Below, piece after piece: positions 22,688 through 30,851 of a DNA stretch of 64,000 nt (position 1 is its first letter; the number at the start of each line of letters is the position of its first letter). Source of the stretch: Flavobacteriales bacterium (lineage in GTDB: Bacteria; Bacteroidota; Bacteroidia; Flavobacteriales_F; PHOS-HE28); NCBI GenBank assembly GCA_026129465.1, contig JAHCIA010000001.1, positions 3,243,583 to 3,307,582 on the forward strand. Reading direction: 5' to 3'. A program made the position numbers and the translations under genes. The notes beneath the pieces are model-generated. The model was given only the letters and a program-made list of their open reading frames with translations, was not told the DNA's origin and did no database searches.

Positions 22688-22921
22688 GTGGCAAAAGGGA
22701 CCGGAACGAGGCCGGTTGGATTCAACGCTTAAATGTAACGCATCGCCGCATTCCAGCGAACGACTTTTAACAACGCTTGGCGCAACGGCATGATGACCGG
22801 TGTATTGCGTGTGACCGACGGGACCTGTGCGCAGGACTACAACTTACTTTGTCCTGCCACGAGGGCTCTCGCGGGCATTGGGCCTTGTGCCCGCCGCCCG
22901 AACAACCAGCTACCACATAAC

Positions 22922-24025
22922 ATGGAGAAGCTTCGCATCAGCACCATCATGGACGCCCTGATCCAGTGGGCACCACTGGAATTGCAGGAGGATTATGACA
23001 ACTGTGGCCTGCAGGTGGGTGATCCCTCAAACGAGGTCGATTCGGTGATGGTTTGCCTGGACTGCACCGAAGCCGTTGTGGAGGAAGCGGCGGCCATGGG
23101 CTGTGGACTCATCATCAGCCACCACCCGGTGATCTTCAGGGGATTGAAGGCGCTGACGGGCCGCGACCATGTGGAACGCACGGTTCTGGCCGCGATCAGG
23201 CGCGGCATCGCCATTCTTTCGCTGCACACCGACCTGGACAATGTGGTGGATGGTGTGAATGGTGAGATCGCCCGGCTGCTGGGCTTGAAGTCCGTGGGCG
23301 TGCTCGATCCCAAGCCGGGCCAGCTTCGCAAGCTGGTGGTCTTCGTGCCGCACGAGAAGGCCGAGGCGGTGCGGTCGGCCCTTTTCGCTGCCGGTGCAGG
23401 GCATATCGGGGGCTACGACGAGTGCAGTTTCAACCTGCAAGGAACGGGGACCTTTCGTGCTGGGGCCGGCACCAGGCCCCATGTGGGCCGGCAGGGTGAG
23501 CGGCACCAGGAGCCCGAGACCCGTGTGGAGGTGATCCTTGTGGCGCATAGGGAAGCCGCGATCCTGGCCGCCATGCGCCGTGCCCATCCTTACGAAGAGG
23601 TCGCCTATGACCTGTATCCCTTGGCCAATGAGCATCCGGGCATTGGCAGCGGCCTATTGGGGGAGTGGGAGAAGCCCTTGACCGAAATGGACTTCCTGGC
23701 CCGGTTGAAGGAGGTCTTCCAGCCCGGGATCTTCCGCCATACCAGGTTGCTGGGCAGGCCCATACGGCGCGTGGCCCTTTGCGGGGGATCGGGCGCCTTT
23801 CTGCTGGGCAGGGCCCTTGGCGCCCAAGCGGATGCCTTCATCACCGGGGATGTGAAGTACCACCAGTTCTTCGATGCCGATGGCCGGCTCTTGCTGGCTG
23901 ACATCGGACACTATGCCAGCGAGCGGTCCACCATGCACCTGATCCAGCGCAGGTTAGGGGAACTTTTCCCTACTTTTGCGGTCCGTTTGACGGAAACCGT
24001 CACGGATCCCATACACCATTATTGA
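22922..24025 (+). CDS. Nif3-family dinuclear metal center protein (YqfO-like)
   Basis: Start at M45 of ORF 22790..24025 (MEKLRISTIM). Conserved Nif3 motifs (HHP..F, GDVKYH). Confidence 0.8.
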   Translation: MEKLRISTIMDALIQWAPLELQEDYDNCGLQVGDPSNEVDSVMVCLDCTEAVVEEAAAMGCGLIISHHPVIFRGLKALTGRDHVERTVLAAIRRGIAILSLHTDLDNVVDGVNGEIARLLGLKSVGVLDPKPGQLRKLVVFVPHEKAEAVRSALFAAGAGHIGGYDECSFNLQGTGTFRAGAGTRPHVGRQGERHQEPETRVEVILVAHREAAILAAMRRAHPYEEVAYDLYPLANEHPGIGSGLLGEWEKPLTEMDFLARLKEVFQPGIFRHTRLLGRPIRRVALCGGSGAFLLGRALGAQADAFITGDVKYHQFFDADGRLLLADIGHYASERSTMHLIQRRLGELFPTFAVRLTETVTDPIHHY

Positions 24026-24029
24026 CCCC

Positions 24030-24857
24030 ATGGCGAAGAGCGACGTGAAGGCCCCGGCCAAAAAGGCCAAGGCCCCGGAGACCAATGGCAAAGTATCCGG
24101 GACCATCCCGAAGGCCGATACCACCATCGCGGAGAAGCTTGTGGAACTGTATCGCCTGCAACATTTCGATTCGCAGGTGGACAAGATCCGGATCCAGCGT
24201 GGCGAGCTGCCGCTGGAGGTGCAGGACCTCGAGGATGAGGTGGCCGGCCTGGAAACCCGATTGAAGAAGCTGGAGGAGGACCTTGCCGAGGTGCAGAACC
24301 AGGTGAGCGACCGGCAGAACATGATCAAGGACGCCAAGGCCCAGATCAAGAAGTACGAGGCCCAGCAGTCCAAGGTGCGCAACAACAGGGAGTTCGATTC
24401 CCTGACCAAGGAGATCGAGTTCCAGAACCTGGAGATCCAGTTGGCGGAGAAACGCATCAAGGAGGCCAAGGCCACCTTGGAGACCAAGAACCAACTGGTG
24501 GTGGAAAGCAAGTCGCTCTATGAGGAGCGCTTGAAGGACCTGCAGGTGAAGAAGAAGGAATTGGACTCGATCATCGCCGAGACCGAGAAGGAGGAGAAGG
24601 AACTCTTGAAGAAGAGCGCCACGGCTTCCAAGCACATCGAAGAGCGGCTGCTGAGCGCCTATCACCGCATTCGGAGCAACGCGCGCAACGGTCTGGGGGT
24701 GGTGCCGGTGGAACGAGGCAGTTGTGGTGGGTGCTTCAACGCCATTCCGCCACAGCGCCAGCTGGACATCAGCAGCCACAAGAAGATCATCGTTTGCGAA
24801 CACTGCGGCCGCATCCTGGTGGATGAGTACGTGGTGGACCGCGTCAAGGGCGAGTGA
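24030..24857 (+). CDS. Coiled-coil protein with C-terminal C4 zinc ribbon (conserved Nif3-neighbour family)
   Basis: 275 aa. A long coiled coil followed by CGGC...CEHCGR at the C-terminus. It sits directly downstream of the Nif3 gene, as in many bacteria. Confidence 0.65.
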   Translation: MAKSDVKAPAKKAKAPETNGKVSGTIPKADTTIAEKLVELYRLQHFDSQVDKIRIQRGELPLEVQDLEDEVAGLETRLKKLEEDLAEVQNQVSDRQNMIKDAKAQIKKYEAQQSKVRNNREFDSLTKEIEFQNLEIQLAEKRIKEAKATLETKNQLVVESKSLYEERLKDLQVKKKELDSIIAETEKEEKELLKKSATASKHIEERLLSAYHRIRSNARNGLGVVPVERGSCGGCFNAIPPQRQLDISSHKKIIVCEHCGRILVDEYVVDRVKGE

Positions 24858-24878
24858 ACCCCTCGGCCATTGGGATCG

Positions 24879-24915
24879 CGAAGGCTCCTGTTCCGCAGGG
24901 GCCTTCGTCTTTTAT
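24879..24915 (+). terminator. Rho-independent terminator-like hairpin after the zinc-ribbon gene
   Basis: The imperfect stem cgaaggctcctg...caggggccttcg is followed by TCTTTTAT. It lies between convergent genes. Confidence 0.5.
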
Positions 24916-24923
24916 GTCGGTCC

Positions 24924-26420
24924 TCAAGGGCGCAGGCTCACCGTGAGGAGCGCGTGATAACCGCGCCGGGTCTCCGAGGCGGGGTCGACCGTCCAGGGGT
25001 CGTAGATGAAATGCTCCACGCCCCGCTGCGCATAGTTCAGCCCCAGATCGATGCCCAGATGGTCGCCCCGGTATCCAAGGCCACCCGCGTAGACCTTGAG
25101 CGCCTGGCCTTGGCGAGCATCAGCGTCCACGTAGGGATCCGCACTGATGGACCAGCCGAGCCGGTAGTACCAATGTCCCAACCGCCATTCGGTGCCCACC
25201 CGCAAGGCATGCGCAGGCCGGAAGACGCGCTCGATGACGCTGTTCTCGAAGGCGAAATCGTAGTCGTCCAGGATCCTGCTGCTGGCCCGCATGCGCATGC
25301 GGCGGAAGTCGGTGTATTCATAGTCCACGCTGAAGAGCGCGTGGGCGCCGGCCACATAGGCAGCGCTGAGGATGCCGCGCCAGGGGGTGTTCACGCGGTA
25401 GCTGAAGAGGCCGTCGGGTGAACTCGCGAAGTACTCGAAGGCCCCATTGGCGTCCGGCGTGCGGAACCGGGTGCGCATGCTCGTGTTGTACCCGTCATTC
25501 AACTGCATCCACTGGGGGCTGTGCCAGGCGAGGCCCATGCGGAAGCGTTCGGTGATACGGCCGATGATGCCCAGCTTCACATCGAAGCCGCTGCCAGTGA
25601 TCGTCAGATCCTCCCGGTATCTCACCTCTGCCAGGTCCAGGCTCCCATCGCGCGTGGTCTCCGTGTGCGTGGTGGTGCGTTGGAACCGGTGGCCGGCGAT
25701 ACCCACACTGACGCCCACATAGAGCGCGTCCAGGTAGTTGCCGGAATAGAAGAAGGAAGTGGTGTTGCTGCGACCACGCGATTCGATCGTGTGGATCTGG
25801 TCCGTGGGCGAACCGAAGGGGATTAGACTGACGTAACTGGTTCCAGCGGAGTCCAACGGGTCTATGGCGTAGGTGTCCCAAGCCAGGCCGGCGGTGAAGG
25901 GAAAGAAGGTGAACAGGTCGCTGTCCTGCGTGCCTTCCGCTTCATACACGAAGCCCTGCAGAATGGTGCTTGGCACGTCCCTGCCTTCCACCAACCGGCG
26001 CCAGTTGTGGGTCGCTTGCCTGTCATAGACCACGCCGAAGGTGCCGCTTCGCCAGTCACTGTCGCGGTCCGAAGGGTTGTTCAGGACCAGGGCGACATTG
26101 CCGAGGTTGAACCGGCTTTCCGTGTCGGCCGCGCGGGTGCCATAGAAGTCATTGGCGGCGTCGTTCACCTCCATGGCCGGGGTGATGCTCAGCTCACTGG
26201 TACGATAGAGTCCGAAGCCTGCGGGGTTGATGGAGATCGAGGCCGGATCGGCACCCAAAGCTCCGAACGCGTTGGCCATACCAGCGCTTCGGGCCGTGCC
26301 CAATGGCCGGATGCCGCTGATCCGCAGGGCATCCTCTTCATTCTGCGCCAAGGCCGGAGCGCACGGGAACGATGCCAGCAGGAACAGCCCCCATGGTATG
26401 CGCGCATCCATCCACCTCAT
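24924..26420 (-). CDS. Outer-membrane beta-barrel protein, FadL/TodX-like (hydrophobic compound transporter family)
   Basis: 498 aa. Signal peptide (LASFPCAPALAQ). The N-terminal motif ARSAGMANAFGALGADPASISINPAG resembles the FadL hatch region. The rest has beta-strand-rich composition. Confidence 0.5.
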   Translation of the reverse strand: MRWMDARIPWGLFLLASFPCAPALAQNEEDALRISGIRPLGTARSAGMANAFGALGADPASISINPAGFGLYRTSELSITPAMEVNDAANDFYGTRAADTESRFNLGNVALVLNNPSDRDSDWRSGTFGVVYDRQATHNWRRLVEGRDVPSTILQGFVYEAEGTQDSDLFTFFPFTAGLAWDTYAIDPLDSAGTSYVSLIPFGSPTDQIHTIESRGRSNTTSFFYSGNYLDALYVGVSVGIAGHRFQRTTTHTETTRDGSLDLAEVRYREDLTITGSGFDVKLGIIGRITERFRMGLAWHSPQWMQLNDGYNTSMRTRFRTPDANGAFEYFASSPDGLFSYRVNTPWRGILSAAYVAGAHALFSVDYEYTDFRRMRMRASSRILDDYDFAFENSVIERVFRPAHALRVGTEWRLGHWYYRLGWSISADPYVDADARQGQALKVYAGGLGYRGDHLGIDLGLNYAQRGVEHFIYDPWTVDPASETRRGYHALLTVSLRP

Positions 26421-26438: not shown

Positions 26439-27485
26439 TCAACGGGGCCTGCCACCGCCACCGCCACCTGGGCGGCTTCCTCCACCTGCTGGAGCTGGGG
26501 AGGAGAAACCGCCACCACCGCGGTCGAAGCCACCACCACTGTTGCGCTCCCCACCACCACGAAGTTGGAAGCCACCCTGGTCGGGCGAGGGTCGGGATTC
26601 GCGCATTTGACGTGTGCGCGACGGCGGTTCATTGGATGGTCGCTGCTGGGGCAGGATCAAGGGACGGTCGCCGCGATCTTGGAAGCCACCCTGCACGGGT
26701 GCGGTGCGTGGTGGGCGTGAACTGCTCGGCGTGTAGGCCGACTCCCGCACCTGCGGCCTCAGGCTCACCGGGTCGCGGGTTGGCATTCCGGTCTTTGGCC
26801 CGCTGGATCCCGGGCGGCCGCCGCCCCCGCCACTGATGCTGGGACGATGGCCCACCACCGTGCCGCTGGATCCGCCGATGATGACCGGGGAGTAGCAACT
26901 GAAGCAATTGCCCATGGGTCCCCAGTAAGGTCCGTAACCATATCCGCCATAGAAGGGGTCATGCCAACCCATGGGGCCGCCCCATCCATAGGGGTTGCCC
27001 CATCCCCAATTGTTGAAGCCGGCTGGACCCCAAGGGCTGCCCCAGCCGTAGCCCATGCCCATCCACGGGTTGTTCCAACCCATGCCGCTGCCCCAACCGT
27101 AGCCCATGTTCCAGTGGGGCGACATGCCCCAGCCATGGCCCATGCCCATGCCCATGCCCCAACCCGGGCCGTTCCATCCGCTCTGCCAGCCCATGCCGGT
27201 GCCGAATCCGAAACGCCCGTAGTTGTAGTAGTACGGGTCGTTGTAGGCCATGTCATAGTAGTTGCGCGGCGAATTGTACTTGTTCGCTGTCGCGGCGTCA
27301 TAGTAATCGTCCGTGGCGCTGCCCGAAGGTTCGGTGCCGGCCTTCTTGGATGCTTTCGCAGGCGCCTGGGAGGGCATGAAGTACACATCGTCGCGCACCT
27401 GCGCCGTATCACGCATTCCGGCACAGGAGGTCAACAGCACGGCGGCGATCGCCGTGGAAATCAGGATGCTCTTGTTGGTGCTCAT
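26439..27485 (-). CDS. Low-complexity lipoprotein (Tyr-rich, GW/GM-rich and Gly/Arg/Pro/Ser-rich segments)
   Basis: 348-aa ORF. Lipoprotein signal MSTNKSILISTAIAAVLLTSC. Residues ~60-200 carry degenerate YGWG/GMGW/NPWMG repeats (possibly of the YXWGXW type); the C-terminal ~150 aa are RGG/GGF-rich. The DNA shows matching short periodic repeats. Confidence 0.55.
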   Translation of the reverse strand: MSTNKSILISTAIAAVLLTSCAGMRDTAQVRDDVYFMPSQAPAKASKKAGTEPSGSATDDYYDAATANKYNSPRNYYDMAYNDPYYYNYGRFGFGTGMGWQSGWNGPGWGMGMGMGHGWGMSPHWNMGYGWGSGMGWNNPWMGMGYGWGSPWGPAGFNNWGWGNPYGWGGPMGWHDPFYGGYGYGPYWGPMGNCFSCYSPVIIGGSSGTVVGHRPSISGGGGGRPGSSGPKTGMPTRDPVSLRPQVRESAYTPSSSRPPRTAPVQGGFQDRGDRPLILPQQRPSNEPPSRTRQMRESRPSPDQGGFQLRGGGERNSGGGFDRGGGGFSSPAPAGGGSRPGGGGGGRPR

Positions 27486-27544: not shown

Positions 27545-27586
27545 GCCGCCCCGTACAGGAACAAAAATAATACCACGGGGAACGGC

Positions 27587-29056
27587 ATGGCAGACCAGCT
27601 CACCAAGCGTTCCGAGGATCTCGCACAGTGGTACAACGATCTGGTGCTGAAGGCCGATCTGGCCGAGCACAGCGATGTACGCGGATGCATGGTGATCAAA
27701 CCGCATGGCTATGCCATCTGGGAGAAGATGCATGCGGCCTTGGATGCCCGCTTCAAGGAAACGGGCCACATGAACGCCTATTTCCCCCTCTTCATCCCCA
27801 AGAGCTACCTGGCCAGGGAGGCCAGCCATGTGGAAGGCTTCGCCAAGGAATGCGCCGTTGTGACCCACTATCGTTTGAAGAGCGACCCGGAGAAAGGGGT
27901 GGTGGTGGACCCGGAGGCGAAATTGGAGGAGGAACTCATCGTTCGCCCCACGAGTGAGACCATCATCTGGAACACCTACCGGGGCTGGATCAAGAGCTAC
28001 CGCGACCTGCCCATCCTGGTGAACCAGTGGGCCAACGTGGTGCGCTGGGAGATGCGCACGCGACTGTTCCTGCGCACGGCCGAGTTCCTCTGGCAGGAAG
28101 GGCACACGGCACATGCCACGCGGCAGGAAGCGGAAGAGGAAACGCTGCGCATGCTGGATGTTTACGCCCGCTTCGCGGAGGAATGGCTCGCCATGCCCGT
28201 GATCAAGGGTGTGAAGACCGCCAGTGAACGCTTCGCCGGCGCGGTGGAGACCTATTGCATCGAGGCCATGATGCAGGATGGCAAGGCGTTGCAGGCGGGC
28301 ACCTCGCATTTCCTTGGACAGAACTTCGCCAAGGCCTTCGATGTGGTCTTCACCAACAAGGAGAACCGGCAGGAGCATGTCTGGGCCACCAGCTGGGGCG
28401 TCTCCACGCGTTTGATCGGCGCTTTGATCCTCACCCATAGCGACGACCACGGTCTGGTGCTGCCACCGAAACTGGCGCCGGTGCAGGTGGCCATCGTGCC
28501 CATCGCCAAGAACGCCGAACAGCTTGACGCCATACGTGGCTATGTGGCCCCGGTGTTGGGCGCTTTGCGGGCCAGGGGCGTCACGGTGAAGTTCGATGAC
28601 GATGACACCAAGAAGCCGGGCTGGAAATTCGCCGAGTACGAGTTCAAGGGCTATCCGCTCCGCATCGCGGTCGGACCCCGGGACTTGGAGCAGGGCACCG
28701 TGGAACTGGCTCGGCGCGACACGATGGAGAAGATTTCCATCCATATGACGGACCTCGCCGACAAGGTGGAACACCTGCTCGAAGCCATCCAGGACAATCT
28801 GTACCAGAAAGCCCTGGCCATGCGCGACCGCAAGACCCGGGCTGTGGACAGTTATGCGGAGTTCAAGCAGGCCATCGAGGAAGGTGGCTTCATACTGGCC
28901 CATTGGGACGGCACGGCGGAGACCGAGGCCAGGATCAAGGAAGAGACCAAGGCCACCATCCGGTGCATCCCCTTGGATGGTGACGCCTCGCCGGGCAAGT
29001 GCATGGTCACCGGTGCACCGAGTGCCGGGCGGGTCATCTTCGCAAGGGCCTATTGA
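27587..29056 (+). CDS. proS: Proline--tRNA ligase, archaeal/eukaryotic-type class II (no INS editing domain)
   Basis: Start at M16 of ORF 27542..29056 ([20 protein letters not shown]). Class II aminoacyl-tRNA synthetase motifs are present. A length of about 490 aa is typical of Bacteroidota ProRS. Confidence 0.9.
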
Positions 29057-29058
29057 GC

Positions 29059-29757
29059 ATGACGCAGGAGGGTGGCATATCGCGGATGGAGAAAGTGGTG
29101 GACACCCTGCGGTCCAAAGGCTGCATGAAGCAGGACGTCTATGGCCAGGTCCAGGACCTCTTCGCCCGGCTGAAGACACAACTGAAAACGATCAATGATC
29201 AGCTGCGCGAAGCCTGCGCGGCCGACGACCGCCTGGTGGTCTCCTTCATCGACCACGGCGAGACGTCGTGCGAGCTGCGCGTGGCCGGGGACGTCATCAT
29301 CTTCAGTATGCATACCAACGTGTTCAAGCTGGAGCAGGGCCATGCCTTGTGGAAAAGCGGCTATCTGGAGGAGGATGGCATGCGTGGTTACTTCGGGCTG
29401 ATCAACATGTACAACTTCCTCAGCGACTCGCTCCGCTTCAACCGCGAACGCGATCTCGGCTACCTGGTGGCGCGCCTGTTCATCAACAAGGAAGGCCACT
29501 TTCTGGTGCAGGGCAAGCGGCAGCTCGGCTTCCTCTTCAGCGATCTGCAGAGCAACGAGATGGACGACGCACGTCTGCGCGAAGTGCTGCTCACGGTGGT
29601 CGACCACGTGATCGAGTTCGATCTGCTGGTGCCCCCATATGACCAAGTGGACCAGATCACCGTGACCGACATCAAGGAACTGTACGCCAACCGGCCCTTG
29701 AGCACGGGCAAGCGCCTGGGCTTCCGGTTCCAGGCCGACACGGACGACCTGACGTGA
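29059..29757 (+). CDS. Hypothetical protein
   Basis: Start at M21 of ORF 28999..29757; the ATG lies 3 nt past the proS stop. No family recognised. Confidence 0.5.
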   Translation: MTQEGGISRMEKVVDTLRSKGCMKQDVYGQVQDLFARLKTQLKTINDQLREACAADDRLVVSFIDHGETSCELRVAGDVIIFSMHTNVFKLEQGHALWKSGYLEEDGMRGYFGLINMYNFLSDSLRFNRERDLGYLVARLFINKEGHFLVQGKRQLGFLFSDLQSNEMDDARLREVLLTVVDHVIEFDLLVPPYDQVDQITVTDIKELYANRPLSTGKRLGFRFQADTDDLT

Positions 29758-29834: not shown

Positions 29835-29909
29835 GGCCCGTTCGTCTAGGGGTTAGGACGCGTCCCTTTCACGGATGAAACAGGGGTTCGATTCCCCTAC
29901 GGGCTACCA
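29835..29909 (+). tRNA. tRNA-Glu (anticodon UUC), CCA encoded
   Basis: Manually folded cloverleaf. Acceptor ggcccgt/acgggct (7 bp, one G-U). D-stem gtct/ggac. Anticodon stem cgtcc/ggatg with loop cTTTCac, anticodon TTC. T-stem agggg/cccct with loop TTCGATT. Discriminator A followed by CCA. Confidence 0.8.
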
Positions 29910-29939: not shown

Positions 29940-30071
29940 GTTCCATTCATGGCCCCTTGTGGATGACACGGAACCGGCCCATGGAGGCCGCATGACATGC
30001 CGACTATCTTTACGGCCCACGGGTTCGACAGACCAATACCCTCACAGGGGCCGGCCAAGCGCAACAACCAC

Positions 30072-30851
30072 ATGCTGAACTACCGCTTCCTGCTCCAGGG
30101 ACTGATGATGACGGTCCTGCTGGTATCCTGTGTCGGCAAGCGCAACATCAACTACCTCCAGGACCCTTCGCTCACGGCCGGCGCCAGCAAGTTGTTCGAG
30201 AACCGGCGCTTCGAGTACCGGATACAGGTGAACGATGTGCTTTCCATCCGGGTGATGGGCCTGGACGAGGCCACGCACCGTTTCTTCAATGTGGAGGCGC
30301 AGAACGGCTTCGTCGGTGTGAACGATGCCGCCCTGTATGTGAATGGCTTCAGTGTGGACCGCAATGGGCACGTGCAATTGCCCACCGTGGGCAAGATCAA
30401 GGTGCAGGGACTCACCGTGGGTGAGGCGCAGGAGACGGTCCAGCGGAAGATCAACGAGTATTTCACCAACGCCACCGTCATCCTGAAACTGGTGAGCTTC
30501 CGTGTGAGCGTGCTGGGTGATGTGTCCCGACCCGGCGCCTACTTCGTGTACAACAACCAGATCACCGTGCTGGAGGCCCTGGCCATGGCCGGCGGCCCCA
30601 ATGAATTCGCGGACAAGACGCACGTGACCATCATGCGCCAGACGGATCGAGGCGTGCAGGCCATCTATCTGGATCTTTCCAGCACCGACGTACTTGCCTC
30701 TGAATACTACTACCTGTTACCGAACGATGTGGTCTACGTGCCCGCGCTGAAAGCGCGAGCTGGCCGCTTGAACCTCGATATATTCCTGATCCTGCTCTCG
30801 ACCTTGAGCACGGCGGCGATCGTCTATTCCATCATCCAGAACACGCAGTGA
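30072..30851 (+). CDS. wza: Polysaccharide export outer-membrane lipoprotein (Wza-like, SLBB domain)
   Basis: Start at M26 of ORF 29997..30851 (MLNYRFLLQGLMMTVLLVSC lipobox). Polysaccharide-export and SLBB motifs (PGAYFV, ITVLEALAMAGG). Confidence 0.75.
   Translation: MLNYRFLLQGLMMTVLLVSCVGKRNINYLQDPSLTAGASKLFENRRFEYRIQVNDVLSIRVMGLDEATHRFFNVEAQNGFVGVNDAALYVNGFSVDRNGHVQLPTVGKIKVQGLTVGEAQETVQRKINEYFTNATVILKLVSFRVSVLGDVSRPGAYFVYNNQITVLEALAMAGGPNEFADKTHVTIMRQTDRGVQAIYLDLSSTDVLASEYYYLLPNDVVYVPALKARAGRLNLDIFLILLSTLSTAAIVYSIIQNTQ

Follow-up and report, generated by a model that had tools for sequence, protein, structure and literature searches.

What use could a bacterium have for a lipoprotein that consists largely of two low-complexity blocks, one uncharged and rich in aromatic residues and glycine, the other basic, with many arginines and no lysine? 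The question is raised by a gene within a stretch of 64,000 nucleotides (nt) from a Flavobacteriales bacterium (assembly GCA_026129465.1, contig JAHCIA010000001.1, positions 3,243,583 to 3,307,582 of the forward strand), referred to here as the window. The answer developed below starts from the finding that this open reading frame (ORF) is a genuine gene under purifying selection and not an assembly artefact, that its product is a member of a Bacteroidota family, widespread but without a name, which is recognized by its position, architecture and composition, and that it apparently forms one operon with the gene of a barrel of the FadL fold lying immediately downstream. The reading that we favour, with moderate confidence, is that the protein is a disordered, sticky lipoprotein, anchored in the outer membrane (OM) and facing the periplasm, that works together with this barrel. 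The gene and the parts of its product, numbered by amino acid (aa), are the following:

26439..27485, minus strand: lipoprotein gene, 348 aa plus stop codon, ATG start, from the ORF listing
27423..27485, minus strand: signal peptide with lipobox LLTS-C21, aa 1-21, read from the sequence
27369..27398, minus strand: conserved motif VRDDVYFMPS, aa 30-39, 9-18 residues past the lipidated Cys
27297..27311, minus strand: conserved motif DDYYD, aa 59-63
27201..27263, minus strand: Tyr-rich motif NYYDMAYNDPYYYNYGRFGFG, aa 75-95, more strongly conserved in the family than any other
26919..27197, minus strand: uncharged aromatic/Gly low-complexity block, aa 97-189 (93 aa), delimited by composition
26757..26918, minus strand: conserved segment, aa 190-243 (54 aa), GNC194xxC197YxPVxIGG..VVGHRPS, then RDPVxL
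26439..26756, minus strand: basic tail of Arg, Pro, Ser and Gly with RPR at its end, aa 244-348 (105 aa) plus stop codon, delimited by composition

Is the ORF a gene at all? The content of G and C (GC) at the site is ~62-63%, DNA of 63% GC gives long spurious ORFs in several frames here, and there is no family model for the product, all of which could be taken to favour an over-called ORF or an artefact of assembly. The pattern of substitution speaks otherwise. Compared with its counterpart in a 97%-identical relative (L090), the gene shows 39 synonymous and 10 non-synonymous codon differences. The aromatic block contributes 7 synonymous changes and 1 non-synonymous change and has exactly the same length in both, while the tail contributes ~21 synonymous and 2 non-synonymous changes (counted from the position list) as well as a Gly-Gly indel that makes up the sole length difference between the two proteins. 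There are zero non-synonymous changes in NYYDMAYNDPYYYNYGRFGFG, and the amino-acid changes are concentrated in a linker at aa 46-67. Because synonymous changes are in excess in both low-complexity blocks, these blocks must be constrained at the level of the protein. Furthermore, 5,047 nt that include the gene show 0 differences from two Logan assemblies (SRR12908352 and SRR12908353), which were made with a different assembler, although the source genome may go back to the same reads; this identity and the equal block length in the close relative lead us to reject collapse of repeats during assembly, a worry that the initial annotation of this locus had raised. Nor is there a periodicity of the DNA to match the protein repeats, as had been claimed: Tandem Repeats Finder returned just three arrays of 18-37 bp for the DNA of the gene, and no real periodicity. 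With hundreds of homologues sharing invariant motifs and gene order (228 of them found at E ≤ 1e-3 in a word-seeded search), and with the positional counterpart in Flavobacterium johnsoniae, Fjoh_4940, detected by mass spectrometry (for details, see below), the idea of an over-called or artefactual ORF, against which the initial annotation had itself argued, is refuted and its probability is next to nil. The exact lipoprotein sequence is on record from the Logan assemblies only, and the adjoining barrel has an NCBI entry, KIT10_13770, although looking up the NCBI barrel protein (P0185) by its exact sequence brought up no record. In the NCBI record of this metagenome-assembled genome (MAG), annotation of the lipoprotein may be missing or follow a different gene call.

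How is a protein of this kind put together? A Lys-containing n-region and then a hydrophobic core precede the lipobox (MSTNKSILISTAIAAVLL-TS-C21, as read from the sequence), which matches the signal peptidase II (SPII) pattern [LVI][ASTVI][GAS]C and bears out the lipoprotein signal LLTSC first proposed; C21 is invariant in alignment A1, from which the other statements on invariant and nearly invariant residues of the lipoprotein also derive. The mature chain falls into four parts (aa 22-96, 97-189, 190-243 and 244-348). The first is rich in Tyr, Asp and Ala and carries three conserved motifs, namely VRDDVYFMPS (D32, Y35 and P38 invariant, D33 and V34 nearly invariant), DDYYD (Y61 invariant, D60 and Y62 nearly invariant) and NYYDMAYNDPYYYNYGRFGFG (Y77, D78, Y81, N82, D83, P84, R91, G93 and F94 invariant), the last of which is the Tyr-rich stretch that had been recognized from the outset. 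The second part, the aromatic block, consists to 87% of six kinds of residue (G33 W15 M10 P9 N7 Y7), contains no Lys or Arg and one Asp, has an aromatic residue per 3.8 positions, and holds 3 His along with its 10 Met and runs such as GMGMGMGHGWGM; its summed Wimley-White interfacial energy, at -28.6 kcal/mol, strongly favours partitioning to the interface. The initial annotation was right about the composition of this block and too generous about its length, which is 93 aa and not ~140 aa, and it missed both the conserved 54-aa segment that follows and the decisive context, namely that beside proS the gene and that of a FadL-fold barrel make up a strictly conserved operon. In that segment G192, C194, Y198, P200 and R214 are invariant and C197, R237, P239 and L242 nearly invariant. 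The fourth part, the tail, has 16 Arg, 0 Lys and a net charge of +8, and it ends in the invariant R348; its Arg/Pro/Ser/Gly character had been described correctly, but it is 105 aa long instead of ~150 aa and contains just 2 RGG and 4 GGF. The O-glycosylation sequon D-[ST]-[AILVMT] occurs in the lipoprotein in one copy (D26-T27-A28), which is unconserved in A1.

No family that has been described accommodates such a protein, and this part of the early assessment proved correct: Pfam gives no match even at E ≤ 10, and NCBIfam none at E ≤ 0.1. The suggested resemblance to the YXWGXW-type repeat found no support, for the pattern Y.WG.W has zero occurrences in the lipoprotein and the Pfam YXWGXW repeat is likewise unmatched. 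When PDB sequences were searched with the family profile, what came up were disordered eukaryotic chains matched by chance (E ≥ 0.07), and the literature searched neither mentions 'YXWGXW' nor describes a Trp/Arg-rich disordered Bacteroidota lipoprotein. The AlphaFold2 model, made from a 22-sequence alignment, has a mean predicted local distance difference test (pLDDT) score of 47.6, with 244 of the 348 residues below 50; the aromatic block falls below 50, and past the signal helix the predicted structure amounts to one low-confidence hairpin at aa 201-212. The lipoprotein is thus predicted to be almost wholly intrinsically disordered.

How far does the family reach, and what holds it together when so much of the sequence is of low complexity? 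When 1.84 billion cluster representatives were scanned exhaustively, 85 clusters at 50% identity came up, and a profile built from the most distant matches (A4) recovered 654 clusters, its matches including, besides Pedobacter frigoris, the cultured Flavobacteriaceae Gaetbulibacter, Olleya, Psychroserpens, Lacinutrix, Formosa, Winogradskyella, Yeosuana and Flavobacterium saliperosum; the 80 loci kept from the genome collection all come from uncultured Flavobacteriales/Bacteroidota MAGs. The F. saliperosum member (P0394) matches the family profile with E 9.6e-24. Across clades, the lipoproteins can barely be aligned: profile-profile comparison of the core clade with the Flavobacteriaceae/Pedobacter lipoproteins aligns only 32 N-terminal columns, the stretch with VRDDVYFMPS, and Pedobacter P0401 gives no match in BLASTP with the window protein as query. 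It is thus gene order, architecture and the N-terminal motif, not full-length alignment, that place distant lipoproteins in the family. Members go by the name of 'hypothetical protein' or, in UniRef, of 'Vitellogenin II' (P0309, P0323, P0366, P0375 and P0401), the latter almost certainly a composition-driven mislabel that stems from the Ser/Arg-rich tail.

The shared grammar was measured over 280 full-length members. A lipobox was found by pattern in 261 of them, and 250 of these 261 have a DD(V/I)Y-like motif no more than 35 residues from the Cys; a motif comparable to DDYYD occurs in 166 of the 280. The densest 60-residue window is composed, in the median, to 87% of G/W/M/Y/N/P/F, the final 100 residues contain a median of 19 K+R vs 5 D+E, and the C-terminal residue is Arg in 185 members. 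The window protein fits this architecture in every part: it has the lipobox and the DD(V/I)Y motif, and after them the block of aromatics with Gly and Asn and the tail rich in Arg and free of Lys. What is kept and what is allowed to drift can be seen by comparing clades of differing GC. Trp makes up 10-11% of the middle region in high-GC and low-GC clades alike, and Gly gives way there to Asn and Ser as GC drops. The tails of both clades contain 17-21% Arg and 0.3-0.5% Lys, and in low-GC genomes (35-42% GC), where the neighbouring prolyl-tRNA synthetase (ProRS) has more Lys than Arg, the lipoprotein tail is still close to Arg-only. Since these biases are stable across clades whose GC differs, Trp and the preference for Arg over Lys are selected and are not by-products of base composition. 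Clearly, then, the spacer residues follow the GC content of the genome, and the sticker residues are kept in spite of it.

Such a division into stickers and spacers invites comparison with sequences that form condensates, and the initial annotation had already likened its tail to eukaryotic RGG/FG low-complexity domains; as an analogy the likeness to aromatic and RGG domains is real, both blocks being under selection, although the RGG repeats are few. Could the lipoprotein, then, form a membrane-tethered condensate or gel through aromatic-Arg stickers, so that many copies together make a periplasmic phase or a sieve under the channel? The spacing of the aromatics in an uncharged Gly matrix, the choice of Arg over Lys at ~40:1 independently of genome GC, the retention of composition while sequence diverges, and the abundance of the F. 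johnsoniae counterpart in OM fractions would all be in keeping with this idea. However, composition is the sole ground from which it is argued, the tail offers only 2 RGG motifs, and the density of aromatics is far above that of known phase-separating domains, so that it may favour adsorption to the membrane or aggregation instead. We regard condensate formation as decidedly improbable. A related proposal, in which lipid-anchored copies with this sticker grammar form a gel or phase, beneath or around the FadL-type channel, that carries hydrophobic cargo across the periplasm or glues the OM to peptidoglycan or the inner membrane, seems to us quite unlikely.

The 10 Met and 3 His among the 93 residues of the aromatic block suggest another possibility, that the protein is a periplasmic binder of the soft metals Cu(I) or Ag(I), with Met, His and Trp as ligands. 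Sites of this Met/His/Trp kind are known from CusF-type and Met-rich copper-resistance proteins, and Met amounts to 6.6% of the aromatic region throughout the high-GC clade. Yet low-GC Flavobacteriaceae have just 0.5% Met in this region, with more Asn and Tyr in its stead and with Trp kept, the conserved neighbourhood contains no copper-resistance genes, and no family match supports the assignment; metal binding is accordingly highly improbable.

If composition by itself says little about the role, perhaps the surroundings of the gene say more. The features needed here are these:

24924..26420, minus strand: FadL-fold 14-stranded outer-membrane barrel, 498 aa (or 495 aa), beginning 18-27 nt past the lipoprotein stop codon
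27562..27569, minus strand: TATTTTTG, which fits the -7 consensus of Bacteroidota promoters and precedes the ATG by 76 nt (pattern match only)
24878..24908, no strand assigned: hairpin with a 14-bp stem and T-rich flanks, between the convergent barrel and Zn-ribbon genes, from a scan for terminator-like sequences (consensus match only)
27587..29056, plus strand: proS (prolyl-tRNA synthetase), 489 aa, with Pfam domains tRNA-synt_2b, HGTP_anticodon and ProRS-C_1

In all of the core-clade loci (L001-L084) whose contig reaches far enough, proS is followed in the divergent direction by the lipoprotein gene and then by the gene of a ~500-aa barrel, and the same order of the three is found on a distant metagenomic contig (L085), in P. 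frigoris (L088) and in F. saliperosum (L089). The full core-clade order has an unassigned ORF and proS on one strand, the lipoprotein and barrel genes divergent from them, and a Zn-ribbon/NIF3 pair convergent with the latter. Across related loci the gap between lipoprotein and barrel genes is 0-30 nt or gives way to an overlap, and this closeness makes it very probable that the two form one operon. Its putative promoter would be the match at 27562-27569 to TAnnTTTG, which is the -7 consensus of Bacteroidota promoters, and the hairpin at 24878-24908 likely marks its end as a bidirectional terminator, judging from sequence. proS, the divergent neighbour in all related loci, is a conserved positional marker and not a functional part of the system.

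What sort of barrel is it that the lipoprotein travels with? The window barrel is 100% identical to the NCBI protein KIT10_13770. Its start is ambiguous, 498 aa being counted from the ATG at 26420 (NCBI protein) and 495 aa from the ATG at 26411 (Logan contigs). The AlphaFold model (mean pLDDT 86.6) shows 14 strands and an N-terminal hatch; the hatch carries an invariant NPA (with N65 and P66 invariant), and the third strand, S3, is kinked and broken at 137/140. When this model was compared with the PDB by Foldseek, BamG, E. coli FadL and TodX came out on top (E 3e-15 to 1e-10, at ~11% identity). Pfam PF03349 scores 13.1 bits on the window barrel, below its cut-off of 29.7, and a match to it is precomputed for many of the barrel's orthologues. 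The barrels of F. saliperosum and Pedobacter are orthologous to that of the window (27-29% identity, E 5e-52 and 4e-47). The mature N-terminus, QNEEDALR, is invariant and by our own count ~7 residues longer than that of FadL. The periplasmic turns comprise 2-6 residues and the extracellular loops are large, with a conservation of 0.63 vs 0.67 for the strands. Loops conserved to the same degree as strands are unusual for an outer-membrane protein (OMP) and hint at a conserved ligand or partner at the surface.

Do these findings make the two proteins a second pair of the BamG/BamH type, with the FadL-fold barrel serving as a scaffold in the way that BamG does in the Bacteroidota β-barrel assembly machinery (BAM) complex? 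The closest structural match of the barrel is indeed BamG of B. thetaiotaomicron (9hiv_F, 3e-15), and the BamG proteins of F. johnsoniae and P. gingivalis are also among the top ten. The lipoprotein BamH is bound by BamG through its N-terminal tail, and the locus numbers of the paralogues BamG2/BamH2, Bt1785/Bt1786, are consecutive (PMC12611786, PMC12578637). QNEEDALR is reminiscent of BamG's conserved extension, and the conserved motifs of the lipoprotein come directly after its lipidated Cys. Against this, E. coli FadL matches equally well (3pgs, 6e-14), identity is ~11%, and neither the barrel sequence (by phmmer) nor its profile found any PDB chain, even though BamG structures are in the library. 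We therefore take the barrel to be a distinct lineage of the FadL family, and an orthology with BamG was considered and rejected on account of the same ~11% identity and lack of any sequence or profile match despite the match in fold. Moreover, BamH is a folded, two-domain surface protein, whereas the window lipoprotein has no export signal and is predicted to be disordered, and the F. johnsoniae counterparts, Fjoh_4940 and Fjoh_4941, are not among the named subunits that co-purify with BamA (PMC12611786). Membership in a pair of this type appears, on balance, quite improbable.

These F. johnsoniae proteins deserve closer attention, for they provide what experimental observations there are, and both were found in the literature in a single study, on TamL. 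Its supplement lists Fjoh_4939 as a proline-tRNA ligase, Fjoh_4940 as a lipoprotein and Fjoh_4941 as an OMPP1/FadL/TodX barrel, all adjacent (PMC12045153, Giovannercole et al.). Fjoh_4940 is the positional counterpart of the window lipoprotein and Fjoh_4941 that of the barrel, the first equivalence being based on gene order and on the sequence-verified congener P0394. The gene after Fjoh_4941 has a 49.5-kDa product, and this fits F. saliperosum, in which the pair is succeeded by a radical-SAM gene of 438 aa. Fjoh_4940 was classed as SPII, 'periplasm-facing lipoprotein, function unknown' (PMC12045153; bioRxiv 10.1101/2024.10.17.618404), and yielded 37-59, about 46, peptides per replicate in OM fractions (PMC12045153). 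Depletion of TamL raises Fjoh_4940 2.6-fold and Fjoh_4941 5.6-fold, and the vesicles, in which surface lipoproteins travel, contain Fjoh_4941 but not Fjoh_4940; the authors of that study propose a functional link between the two (PMC12045153). In the proteomics of the BAM study, the barrel A5FA29 (Fjoh_4941) was detected and classed as an OMP, and A5FA28 (Fjoh_4940) was absent (PMC12611786).

On which side of the OM would the lipoprotein then be found? The export signal of Bacteroidota surface lipoproteins consists of at least two acidic residues just after the lipidated Cys (criterion in PMC12578637). The window protein continues as C-AGMRDT, that is, with one acidic residue, and so lacks the signal. 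Counted at +2 to +7 after the Cys, acidic residues (D/E) number 0 in 214 of the 261 members with a lipobox, 1 in 44 and 2 in 3, and by this criterion the 214 members that have none point to retention in the inner leaflet.

Both the missing signal and the vesicle data bear directly on the role originally proposed, that of a cell-surface adhesive or matrix-forming protein. In its fuller form, the proposal would have the lipoprotein exported, perhaps via the barrel, its tail binding extracellular DNA or anionic polysaccharide and its aromatic block binding glycans or gelling. The composition is certainly sticky, the extracellular loops of the barrel are large and conserved, the relatives are mostly activated-sludge and freshwater MAGs (by isolate names only), and there is a precedent in Neisseria NHBA, a lipoprotein exposed at the surface, part of which is disordered and which binds heparin through an Arg-rich stretch (PMC6104945, PMC3308885). 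However, 214 of 261 members carry no export signal, and Fjoh_4940, classed as periplasm-facing, occurs in OM fractions and is missing from the vesicles that carry surface lipoproteins. In addition, a housekeeping position with strict synteny across classes is unlike that of typical adhesins, and the length of the aromatic block is stable, not varying, between close relatives. The surface role as first suggested is thus not upheld, and an adhesin or matrix former is an unlikely explanation.

How, then, might a sticky lipoprotein that faces the periplasm work together with the barrel? After export and lipidation at C21, and lacking the signal for the surface, it would stay in the inner leaflet of the OM with its chain directed towards the periplasm. 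The motifs VRDDVYF, DDYYD and YYDMAYNDPYYYNYGRFGFG, together with the CxxC segment, would make the specific contacts with the periplasmic rim of the barrel, its hatch or its membrane-facing wall. The mature part of the barrel has no Cys (by our own reading of its sequence), and the CxxC should therefore be intramolecular or bind something else. The uncharged Trp/Tyr/Gly block would adsorb at the membrane interface, self-associate, or do both, and the Arg-only tail would bind anionic components of the envelope, such as phospholipid head groups or the carboxylates of peptidoglycan, or, by cation-π contacts, the aromatic block itself; Arg is suited to bidentate binding of phosphate or carboxylate as well as to cation-π contacts. 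The outcome would be a flexible, sticky periplasmic tether under a FadL-type channel, one that would serve either to link the OM and the barrel with the envelope beneath them or to take up the hydrophobic cargo that the channel releases into the membrane.

Several observations weigh against this reading. The orientation follows from a missing sequence signal, not from experiment, and physical contact between lipoprotein and barrel, the binding targets and the physiological role are inferred. With periplasmic turns so tiny and extracellular loops so large and conserved, the barrel has more room for a partner on the surface side, and those Bacteroidota FadL-like proteins whose partner is known (BamG; PorV, PMC12578637) bind it extracellularly. 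The connection with Fjoh_4940 runs through gene order and the same-genus P0394 and not through its own sequence. Finally, as Fjoh_4940 went undetected in the OM proteomics of PMC12611786, in which Fjoh_4941 was detected, its absence from vesicles may be a detection problem, caused by few useful tryptic peptides.

The wider neighbourhood offers some further observations. A 252-aa ORF with a GTG start at 28999-29757 (+), which as listed overlaps the 3' end of proS, has no Pfam match and is kept, at 50-66% identity, in every related locus that reaches that far. At 22790-24857 (+) lie a NIF3 (DUF34) gene and then a gene for a Zn-ribbon/CT398-like coiled-coil protein; the pair stands beside the operon in most core-clade loci (L001-L084) that are long enough, whereas F. 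saliperosum and Pedobacter do not have it there. A single tRNA, tRNA-Glu(TTC), is encoded in the window, at 29835-29909 (+), and after it, at 29997-30851 (+), comes a gene for polysaccharide export that is Wza-like and has the domains Poly_export and SLBB; its equivalent in L004 precedes Wzz/GNVR and a flippase.

What is the significance of maintaining such a gene pair? The Bacteroidota OM is organised largely by lipoprotein-barrel pairs (SusCD, BamG-BamH and the PorV complexes of the type IX secretion system), and the lipoprotein partners characterised so far are all folded; here the partner is nearly all low complexity and yet under purifying selection. Its position is the same in two or more classes of Bacteroidota. 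The F. johnsoniae counterpart is abundant in OM fractions and goes up upon depletion of the TamL system of lipid and OM homeostasis. The family also provides a natural example of composition kept without sequence kept, with Trp at ~10% and Arg:Lys at ~40:1 irrespective of GC. Should the pair turn out to be a tether or a relay for hydrophobic cargo, it would fill a gap in how the OM of these bacteria is coupled to the rest of the envelope; if it does not, there would still be an unannotated family that deserves a Pfam/NCBIfam model and correction of its 'Vitellogenin II' labels. Were the sticker-gel idea true, a new physical principle of envelope organisation would emerge in a phylum that, to our knowledge, lacks Braun's lipoprotein. 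No demonstrated mechanism is claimed here; the role is directly testable through F. johnsoniae genetics.

How does the pair compare with systems that are known? The Pfam YXWGXW repeat has its richness in Trp and Gly in common with the window protein, which matches neither its model nor its pattern. Eukaryotic FUS-type prion-like and RGG domains and the FG nucleoporins combine aromatics with Gly/Ser/Asn spacers and have an Arg-rich, Gly-rich, Lys-poor region, and they resemble the lipoprotein in that composition is kept while the sequences cannot be aligned; in contrast to them, the window protein is bacterial, lipid-anchored, extracytoplasmic and Trp-dominated, with aromatics several-fold denser. 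In the Trp/Arg-rich membrane-active peptides indolicidin, tritrpticin and lactoferricin, Trp and Arg together give strong affinity to the interface of anionic membranes (reviews: PMC6017362, PMC9916935), and the interfacial energy of the aromatic block is favourable too, but here the two residues occupy separate blocks of ~100 residues in a lipoprotein of the cell's own and are not interleaved in a toxin of 10-15 residues. Neisseria NHBA, too, is lipid-anchored, disordered over a long region and able to bind polyanions through an element rich in Arg; it differs in having a folded C-terminal β-barrel domain, exposure at the surface and a short Arg-rich stretch, with no aromatic block and no homology (PMC6104945, PMC3308885).

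As regards the barrel, E. coli FadL and Pseudomonas TodX share with it the 14 strands, the N-terminal hatch, the invariant NPA and the kinked S3, whereas the window barrel is ~75 residues longer and below the Pfam threshold. We know of no dedicated lipoprotein partner for canonical FadL channels. BamG-BamH resembles the present pair in joining a 14-stranded barrel of the FadL fold to a lipoprotein, and it differs in that BamH is folded, surface-exposed and endowed with an export signal, while the window lipoprotein is predicted to be disordered and has none. Fjoh_4940/Fjoh_4941, lastly, display the same three-gene order of proS, SPII lipoprotein and FadL/TodX-type OMP; Fjoh_4940 has no export signal and no annotated domain, and Fjoh_4941, at 55 kDa, is of a size with the ~500-aa barrel described here. 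Otherwise unalignable across clades, the lipoproteins of these loci share their architecture and their N-terminal motif.

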